Shown in pieces: positions 45,001 through 48,000 of a stretch of DNA of 64,000 nucleotides. The DNA comes from Escherichia coli (GTDB lineage: Bacteria > Pseudomonadota > Gammaproteobacteria > Enterobacterales > Enterobacteriaceae), in NCBI RefSeq assembly GCF_024502345.1, contig NZ_JALDNN010000003.1; one strand, 5' to 3'. A program made the position numbers. Each line of letters opens with the position of its first letter. Position 1 is the stretch's first letter.

Positions 45001-48000
45001 GCTTGCTGGTTAGCCGGGGTATTTCACGGCATAAAACTTTTAAATGTTGCCGTGATAGCAATGTTGTCGGGTCAGAACAAAACGAAAGTTAAGGCAACTT
45101 CAACAGGGCTGATTACGGTGGAAGAAAAGTAACTTTTCTCTTGAGAAGAAATAGGAAAAGCAGAAATTAGGACGATTAAATGAGGTGAAATGTCAGCAAC
45201 AGGCGATGATTGTCCATCATCGTAAGGGAGGGTACAGGGTGCCGCTGCCTTACTGGCATCATGTTGATGTCCAGCTCTTCATACCCGTTTGTACCTTAGC
45301 CGGAACTGTTGTTCAGTACAGGTAAAAGTTGTAATAACTCCCCGCTCACTGCCGGGGAGTCATTTTAAATCAGCACGGCGCCATCAGAATAGATTAGCTT
45401 TCAAACCAGGGCGAATCGGCAGAGTTCGCAGATTCTTCACTTTGCTGTGACTCCCCCAGAAATTGCACTTCACGTACTGGTTTACTTTTCCCCAGGCTCC
45501 GCTGGAAATCATCCATCACAAACTCAATATCATCACGGTCCTCAGGCAAGACAGGCGAACTTTTGGACATAGTCTTTCCTTCAGTTAAAAGCGTTCTGCA
45601 TACAGAACGCGGACGGAGACGGCAGTGTTGTCAAACTCATTATCGAAGGTATCCATCCACTCGGTCCTGAACCCCTCGCCCAGCAGGTTATCGATCCCCT
45701 GAAGGGACAGAGGCAGGACGGCAGCTAAACGCCCGCCGGGAACCAGATGAGACGCAGCGGCCAGCAGATGCAGCTTAGCCCGGTTGTCAGCAAAAGGAGG
45801 GTTCATCACCACGCAATCAAATTTCTGAATCTGATTCGCCGCCGACCAGGCCAGAAAATCGGCTTCCGTGGTCTCGTAACCTTTAGCCCGGGAGACCAGA
45901 CAATTCAGTGTATCCAGTTCGATGCCGGTTACGTTGACACTTTTCGGGAAACATTGAAGCAAATCCCCGTGCCCAATATTGGGCTCCAGCAGCCGTTCCC
46001 CCTCCCCGGCCGCAATAATGGATGCGACGTATTCACTGAGTCGCGCCGACGACGGATAAAACTGGTGGGATTTAATATCAGGCATGGCGCCCATATGTCC
46101 GATGAAGCGCATCACTTCGGTCGGGTCATAATCAAACGTCACATGGTAGCTTGTCACTCGGGCACCGAGAAATCGCAGAACATCCGCGTTCACCTGCCGC
46201 GTTTTATCAGCGTTCTCACCGGCATAGCCGAGCGATGTCCAGCTGGACCATTCCTTTTCATTCTGGGTAAAATCCAGCTCTGCAAGCTGCATCCGTGAAT
46301 GAAAATCGATGCAGCGTTTCAGTGCCGGGAACTCCTGCAACGTCGCTTTGGTATGGGCCACGCGTTCAGCAGGCAGAGCCAGAGGGACGATGGCAGCAAG
46401 AATGTTGTTAAGCCGTTCGGCGATATCAGGATGCACATCAATGTGCATCGATCCGTTTTTGTAGACCCGAAAACGAATACTGTTGCCATCCAGGCTGATC
46501 CAGTTTCTGAATCCAACATGACCAACCATATTCTCAACCATTTTTTTCGTGTCATAGACCGGTTTAACTGTTTCGCCCCGGAAATAAGAACAGATCACCC
46601 GCAACTCCGAAAGTGGCATGAGGCCGGATTCTTTAAACTCAACCTTCAGTTTTACCCATTTGTCTTTCACGCCTTCACATACGCCGGAGGTGATCATGCG
46701 AGTAGAGAAGCCAAATGCTTTATTGGTTTTGTGTTGACGGCTTAATGACTGAAAGACGGCATAGACACGATCTTTAATGAACTGATGCCGGTCATTGAGC
46801 AACGCGACAACCGTGGTAACAACAGCATCGAGTGTAAAATCAGGGATCTCCTGAGGAGGAAGGTGGTAACGGTCAGCAGTAAACTGCTTATCCCATTCTT
46901 TCTTCTTTTCGTCAGACATCACAGACAGTACATCGGTCAGGGCCATGACCCTCTTCCAGTATTCTGAACGCAGCGCGTTTTCTGCGTAGCTGGCATCCGC
47001 TTCTGAAATGAGATGATTGTATCCGGAGAGGTATGAATAGAGCTTCTGATTCCCGCATTTCAGGAACTGAGCGGACATGGACCTCAGTAAGCTAAGCTCA
47101 TCGTTATATGATTCGACCTGCCTGTTAATGACATCGAGCTCTTCCCGCATTTCGGGCAGGAAGTTATCGTCGTTAATAAGGAGGCCAGTATGAGGCATAT
47201 AAGCAACCAGAGAACTCCCAGGGGCACCCATTGGCAGGGAATCAGATTCAACAGCAGACATAGCACCAGTCCTTTTTGAAGGGTTTATCTGATACCAGGA
47301 TAACAACCTTGAACAAAAAGCTAATAGGTTGGCTGACATGAAAATGGAGAAATTAACACTGCGGAAAGTCAGAAAGACAGATGTGGTTTTAATCAGAAGA
47401 AACGGGCCGGAGACAGGACAAAAAAACCCCTACATAGTAGGGGCAACGGGGGGAGAGCCTGGGTGGCTCGCTCTAAAATATCGTACTTCTTATTGTAGGC
47501 TTCTCACACTCTGAAATAATTCATTTAAGCCTGTGCTGGGGGGGGGGGGCGGATTGCGGTTCTCCGCCATTTTTATCGTTTTTCTTGGTTTTGTAAGTCA
47601 CTTTTTCCCCTTTCAATCGGGCTTGCCGATTTTCGGCCCGGCGAAGCTGCTTGTTTTCTGATTCCGTAATCTCACTTTGCAGGTTCTTGAGCATCTCCAA
47701 CATGCTCCGGTTCAGCGTAAAGGTAATTTCTTCATCTTCGCTGGAGTCGGTCACCTCCGGCAACTCGATATCACCGAGTTTCTGCAATAGACTCGTCGTA
47801 ATGAGTTTGACCCCTTCGACGGCTTTTGTAGCGAGAACTGGTGGAACACGTGCGGGTTTAAAATCGGAAGGGACAACACGGATCTGCCCGCGTGGCGTTT
47901 TCTTAATCTGGATACCGCTTGAATCAGCCTTTTCAAGGTCTGCGATCATCTTTTCGATCCGCGCAACAGCTTCCGTTTCACCGAACTCATCGATAAGGGA

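Follow-up and report, generated by a model that had tools for sequence, protein, structure and literature searches.

The ParB-like gene and its surroundings

The window, by which we mean the whole 64,000-nucleotide stretch of Escherichia coli DNA that was analysed, is part of the backbone of a resistance-type IncHI1 plasmid that resembles R27 and pHCM1. It is 99.3-99.4% identical to R27, pHCM1 and many plasmids of E. coli and Salmonella over 2 kb and 99.7-99.8% identical to them over 24 kb. The gene considered here is an ORF at 47521..48684 on the minus strand, with a Dam methyltransferase gene (49044..49868, plus strand) and a DUF4942 gene (45585..47339, minus strand) as its neighbours. It encodes a DNA-binding protein with a predicted ParB/Noc/KorB fold, which is 387 residues long in the window, where it ends ...GGEPQSAPPPQHRLK*, and 385 residues long in R27. 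Residues 1-378 of the two proteins are the same, and all five in-gene SNPs relative to R27 are synonymous. The neighbouring DUF4942 gene can be read as a possible ORF of 584 aa, which is longer than the 558-aa product annotated in relatives, and in one related contig (L013) it is called at 584 aa.

Homologues of the protein are annotated elsewhere as 'DNA-binding protein' or as 'ParB/RepB/Spo0J family partition protein'. Its score against the Pfam profile HTH_ParB (PF17762) was 22.5 bits, essentially at the cut-off of 22.6, and that against TIGR00180 was 18.2 with a cut-off of 58.45. A search of PDB sequences with the product gave no match. The AlphaFold model has a mean pLDDT of 73, and its top Foldseek matches are Noc, ParB, Spo0J and KorB (probability 1.0, E-values of 5e-6 to 8e-4). 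Judging from this model, the product appears to contain the ParB N-terminal domain and the HTH fold. The earlier note had called the gene a ParB-like paralog, and tblastn did place two others in the window, one at 7910..9115 with 35% identity and one at 51909..52985 with 34%. This one 64-kb stretch of IncHI1 backbone hence carries three ParB-like genes, all on the minus strand and 34-35% identical over about 200 aa.

In other respects the gene differs from the ParB/Noc/KorB family. In ParABS systems a parA ATPase gene is adjacent in the same operon, whereas the annotation shows no parA-like ORF between 47521..48684 and the flanking Dam methylase and DUF4942 genes, and none of the three ParB-like paralogs in the window has an adjacent parA. 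In the related plasmid CP082487 (L003), a ParA gene is found some 19 kb downstream of the homologue. The canonical box II (CTP-binding) motif of ParB is GERRxRAA, whereas the corresponding motif here, at residues about 118-128, is VRQGHCRLKAA, with GHCRLKAA in place of the canonical sequence and QGHCR invariant among the homologues. Because of this departure, the ParB-like family to which the gene belongs may not use CTP-dependent clamping.

A G12 homopolymer close to the stop codon

Near the 3' end of this gene the plus strand reads ...GCCTGTGCT-GGGGGGGGGGGG-CGGATTGCGG... and contains an uninterrupted run of 12 G at 47538-47549, position 47537 being a T. The earlier note had reported 13 G at 47537-47549, and while the homopolymer exists, both its length and its start were off by one. 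On the coding strand the C12 run is read as GCC CCC CCC CCC CAG, or A-P-P-P-Q, and takes up two nucleotides of the A379 codon, the codons of P380, P381 and P382, and one nucleotide of the Q383 codon. The PPP described near the C-terminus of a minus-strand gene is therefore correctly placed, and the stop of the ORF is found 5 codons beyond the tract.

The run is exceptional within the window. No homopolymer in the 64 kb is longer, the runners-up among G/C runs are two runs of 8 nt, and the number of runs drops about four- to fivefold with each extra base. A G10 pattern has three overlapping matches in the window. In 100 shuffles that preserve dinucleotides it matched 0.06 times on average, and in none of them three times. 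The run-length distribution and the shuffles together rule out a chance origin of the tract.

At the same site R27, CP024236 and CP082487 read GGGGGTGTTT, which is 10 nt long and leads to a different frame with the tail ...SETPPAQA* (385 aa). A 111-nt query from this region retrieved about 220 PLSDB and 110 E. coli complete-genome records, and the homopolymer was present in none of these roughly 330 records, which span 109 nt of the query at 93.7-94.6% identity. The window's SNP haplotype was likewise found in none of those PLSDB and E. coli complete-genome records, the best identity over 2 kb being 99.4%. A scan for the locus among GTDB representative genomes returned no match. Since the poly-G haplotypes themselves are missing from the complete collections, the absence concerns the lineage and not the tract. 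The window belongs to an IncHI1 sub-lineage that has a pure-G site and is missing from those complete-plasmid collections.

The window differs from the classical IncHI1 plasmids by scattered SNPs (about 0.2%), and in 40 kb aligned with CP082487 only two indel sites are present besides the tract, namely a cluster of 16 nt at 38434-38454 and one T at 27074. With so few indels and with its SNPs scattered, the window gives the impression of a cleanly assembled, distinct lineage, and a generally low assembly quality was ruled out, as there are only these two indel sites besides the tract. The cluster at 38434-38454 is a net insertion of 16 nt relative to CP082487 with substitutions flanking it, and it is the sole sizeable indel of the 40-kb alignment. 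Separately, about 770 bp at 28662-29431 have no match in CP082487 and lie between two collinear blocks; this segment may be an insertion or a replacement.

Tract length varies among near-identical plasmids

We predicted the proteins that tract lengths from 8 to 16 would give on the window backbone and looked up each of them by its exact sequence. Four lengths were found. The protein for n=9 (P0003, tail ...SAPPQHRLK) is encoded by 18 contigs, that for n=10 (P0002, tail ...SAPPPAQA) occurs in 377 index blocks, that for n=11 (P0004, tail ...SAPPPSTGLNELFQSVRSLQ) is encoded by 12 contigs, and that for n=12, which is the window's own protein (P0005, WP_256632882.1, tail ...SAPPPQHRLK), by 10 contigs. 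The proteins for n=8 and n=13-16 are absent from the public collections by the same exact look-up. The contigs whose DNA was fetched contain pure runs of G9, G10, G11 and G12. Source data sets include DRR741719 and DRR860323 for G12, DRR859749, DRR872411, SRR30000272 and ERR12816276 for G11, GCA_029358165.1 for G10 and GCA_010265115.1 for G9. The ancestral-frame length G10 makes up about 90% of the contigs, although, given clonal spread, the counts do not represent independent samples.

In order to sort the alleles by background, we used a table of SNPs over 42.5-53.7 kb. On haplotype A, which is that of the window (0-1 SNP in 11 kb), we found G9 (L013, L014 and L017), G10 (L010 and L012), G11 (L006 and L008) and G12 (L004 and L005). 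On haplotype B, which differs from the window at five positions, G9, G10 and G11 are present. Within haplotype A the derived allele 53110A is common to the G11 and G12 contigs and 53110G to the G9 and G10 contigs, and this split shows that tract lengths are heritable within sub-clades. Over the two haplotypes the site has undergone at least 5 length changes, compared with about 4 SNP events in 11 kb of haplotype A. As in simple sequence repeat (SSR) contingency loci, the length differs among close relatives and its changes are recurrent (homoplasic), appearing on both haplotypes. An independent sample, obtained by a pattern scan of metagenome contigs, contained six alleles of the R27 type, each accompanied by R27-type SNPs, and a single G10, which was on haplotype A. 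The window's haplotype and the related haplotype B are represented by hundreds of short-read and metagenome contigs. In the comparison of 42500-53700 with L001-L032, the contigs L018 and L021 resemble recombinants between the window's haplotype and the R27 type.

The earlier note had taken the tract to be prone to slippage and had proposed a comparison of its length across related plasmids and isolates, with uniformity as the outcome that would speak against slippage. The length is not uniform, and backbones that are nearly identical (0-1 SNP in about 11 kb) carry G9, G10, G11 or G12. A simpler description suggested by the R27 alignment, namely a private 2-nt insertion with four substitutions or an isolated assembly error, was dropped after G9 to G12 had been found on the same haplotype.

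A broader technical explanation has to be considered as well. The tract, or the differences in its length, could be sequencing or assembly errors at a G-rich homopolymer in a lineage that truly has one sequence. Every platform is prone to errors at homopolymers of 10 nt or more, most of the variant contigs are automatic short-read assemblies, and the tract occurs in no complete plasmid of the PLSDB or E. coli RefSeq collections. Furthermore, Illumina substitution errors cluster after GG, GGG and CGG motifs, with G being preferentially incorporated (PMC4787001). However, an error should be irreproducible and unlinked to genealogy, and what we find is the opposite. Poly-G occurs strictly with SNP haplotypes A and B, and assemblies of the same kinds, from short reads and metagenomes, give GGGGGTGTTT on R27-type backgrounds. 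The lengths other than the modal one are each found in 10-18 contigs, among them groups with near-identical neighbourhoods, and the lengths follow genealogy at position 53110. In the 40-kb comparison with CP082487 there are three indel sites and no general homopolymer noise. The length carried by the window itself recurs in other assemblies (10 contigs, with L004 and L005 read directly and 8 similar ones). We therefore regard a technical origin as unlikely, although some of the length calls may be technical, and the assembly error that the earlier note regarded as common at such tracts is disfavoured for this record.

Origin of the run

R27 has the coding-strand sequence GAA ACA CCC CCA at this site, where the G10 allele has GCC CCC CCC CCA. 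The two differ by four A-to-C changes (T-to-G on the plus strand) with no change in length. Partly converted sequences exist. The intermediate tail SEPPPAQA was found by exact look-up, with the DNA GGGGGGGGTT in L023 and GGGGGTGGTT in L024, and so was the tail SEAPPAQA, with the DNA GGGGGTGCTT in L025. All three are on the R27-type background and are represented by 1-5 contigs each. They indicate that the site is mutable in that direction on that background, which is a different matter from the actual ancestry of the poly-G haplotypes. Given the same-direction Illumina bias, these rare intermediates may also be technical. Stepwise protein intermediates with the tails DT, DP and AT and with n=5-7 are absent from the public collections.

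In the Kunkel model, transient-misalignment ('dislocation') mutagenesis is recognised by bases beside a run being converted into the run's own base. All four changes from GGGGGTGTTT to G10 match the adjoining base of the run, and partial states such as GGGGGTGGTT and GGGGGGGGTT occur, as would be expected of growth by dislocation at the run's end; a polymerase example of a transient-misalignment substitution is available for comparison (PMC3643592). The mechanism is suggested by this pattern, in which the partial states are rare, sit on another SNP background and could be same-direction sequencing errors. Gene conversion from a paralog, or from a distant homologue with a proline-rich tail, was considered as a source of the run and rejected, because both paralogs in the window align over the body of the protein only and homologues down to 44% identity have no poly-P tail.

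The sequence of events that we infer would thus start from GGGGGTGTTT (coding GAA ACA CCC CC), in which four T-to-G changes beside the G5 run would have produced G10 while the length and reading frame were kept. Once the run was at 10 nt, slipped-strand mispairing in the course of replication would add single G:C pairs to it or remove them. Such slippage would account for the G9, G11 and G12 alleles, the last of which is carried by the window.

Effect of slippage on the protein

Each of the three reading frames that follow the tract is closed by a nearby stop codon on the minus strand. The window's frame (n=9, 12 or 15) ends at a TGA at 47521..47523 with the tail ...PPQHRLK. The ancestral frame, which is that of R27 (n=10 or 13), ends at a TAA at 47525..47527 with the tail ...PPAQA. 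The third frame (n=8, 11 or 14) ends at a TAA at 47490..47492 with the tail ...PPSTGLNELFQSVRSLQ, giving 397 aa at n=11, and this tail does occur in public assemblies (P0004). The stops are 3-15 codons past the tract and the products are 385-398 aa long, with residues 1-378 unchanged. An intrinsic-terminator-like hairpin on the minus strand at 47416..47444, GCCCCTAC-TAT-GTAGGGGT followed by T7, is located downstream of all three stops, so that a change of frame does not run into the next gene, and an effect on a downstream gene was ruled out on this basis.

The part of the protein that changes is poorly conserved. When homologues down to 44% identity are aligned, conservation of the body extends to about ...NRQAKLNG, and the last 30 or so residues vary in both length and sequence. 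The model has no secondary structure past residue 357, and its pLDDT is below 50 at residues 365-387. As every frame stops soon after the tract, within a non-conserved and probably disordered tail, slippage exchanges tails and cannot turn the gene off. It would swap three short C-termini, leaving the ParB-like N-terminal and HTH domains and the C-terminal helix intact. The expectation that only the last few residues are switched agrees with the tails seen at n=10 (...PPAQA), at n=9 and 12 (...PPQHRLK) and at n=11 (...PPSTGLNELFQSVRSLQ). The phase variation of which the earlier note spoke is not supported in a functional sense, since no frame truncates the protein and the affected tail lacks conservation and is disordered in the model. 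The ON/OFF switch or truncation that a length change produces in SSR contingency loci is not found here.

Mixed C-termini might also arise from a single allele at the level of expression, if RNA polymerase slipped or ribosomes shifted frame on the C12 run. Long homopolymers can slip during transcription, and the frequency of insertions rises exponentially with run length (PMC5574713). However, programmed transcriptional slippage takes place on A or T runs of 9 nt or more, whereas the run in this mRNA is C. The insertions caused by slippage in E. coli were confined to A/T runs, and G and C runs are described by the same authors as not prone to slippage (PMC5574713), which disfavours transcriptional slippage here. 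Moreover, the variation that we observe is at the DNA level. Recoding thus seems extremely improbable as an explanation of the tract.

A second poly-C tract

The window contains a second homopolymer with polymorphic length, a C8 run on the plus strand at 9387-9394. It is intergenic, between the ParB-like paralog at 7910..9115 (minus strand) and an unannotated plus-strand ORF with an ATG at 9427, and is positioned just 5' of an AAAGGAG motif. A 121-nt query on this tract matched 29 PLSDB records at 95-99% identity. The alleles include C8 in the window and in pHCM1 CT18, C7 in CP037911 and C12 in CP029937. Owing to its position upstream of a start codon, this tract could matter more than the one at 47538-47549.

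Mutational hotspot or contingency locus

SSR contingency loci, known from Haemophilus, Neisseria, Campylobacter and Helicobacter, contain poly-G/C tracts that mutate by slipped-strand mispairing, and they are rare in mismatch-repair-proficient Enterobacteriaceae. The tract described here resembles them in being a poly-G/C run of at least 9 nt inside a gene, in its single-unit differences among near-identical genomes and in its recurrence on separate backgrounds. Such loci usually have a homopolymer of about 8 nt or more inside a reading frame or promoter, and the G12 run is inside ORF 47521..48684. It differs from them in that it lies 5 codons from the stop, and consequently there is no ON/OFF switching of the gene, and in that it is on a plasmid, in one sub-lineage only, and known from a comparison across isolates. 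Neutral microsatellite or homopolymer polymorphism, of the kind used in VNTR/SSR typing, is the other system with which it can be compared. The features in common are frequent indels at a single repeat where the sequence is not constrained, stepwise lengths around a founder (G10) and an association of length with sub-clade (53110A with G11/G12, as opposed to 53110G with G9/G10). The difference is that the tract is inside a coding region and changes the last residues of a protein.

Slippage at this site could nonetheless have been selected, if the three C-terminal isoforms differed in activity, partner binding or proteolytic stability and thereby made the plasmid population heterogeneous. Homopolymers reported from the coding transcriptome of E. 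coli reach at most 9 nt (PMC5574713), and the tract exceeds this. Its length has changed recurrently on two backgrounds, four substitutions in the same direction built the run, and the poly-C tract at 9387-9394 is a second length-polymorphic one in the same plasmid family (C7, C8 and C12). The dominance of G10 could reflect selection as well. Against this, the folded part of the protein is neither inactivated nor truncated in any frame, the tail lacks conservation even in close homologues and is predicted to be disordered, and the great majority of IncHI1 plasmids manage without the tract. About 90% of the alleles have the ancestral-frame length, and in the literature on homopolymeric tracts in IncHI1 we found no description of such a mechanism. 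An adaptive role of this kind is in our opinion improbable. Its strongest form, in which reversible slippage would toggle a ParB/KorB-like regulator among three tails of different proteolytic stability or partner binding and would, together with the tract at 9387-9394, amount to plasmid-borne phase variation in Enterobacteriaceae, is very improbable.

Taken together, the evidence favours a poly-G repeat that is real, young, hypermutable and restricted to one lineage, and that is probably a near-neutral mutational hotspot rather than an ON/OFF contingency locus. The term 'phase variation' goes beyond what can be demonstrated for the tract, and the mutational part of the earlier note holds. The prevalence of G10 may reflect selection for the native tail, in which case the tail would not be fully neutral, or it could reflect recency.

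The tract will give rise to spurious 'frameshift' or variant-protein calls, as at least 4 protein accessions differ in the tail alone, and it adds homoplasic noise to comparisons of IncHI1 plasmids. Conversely, the poly-G allele is a marker of a widespread IncHI1 sub-lineage that is absent from the complete-plasmid collections. The tract itself is unlikely to matter for plasmid function. It appears to be a small and clean natural case of a homopolymer that would have been born by directional substitutions beside a short run and then became unstable in length in a mismatch-repair-proficient host, and as such it adds another case to a well-known class of mutational hotspots, probably a near-neutral one.
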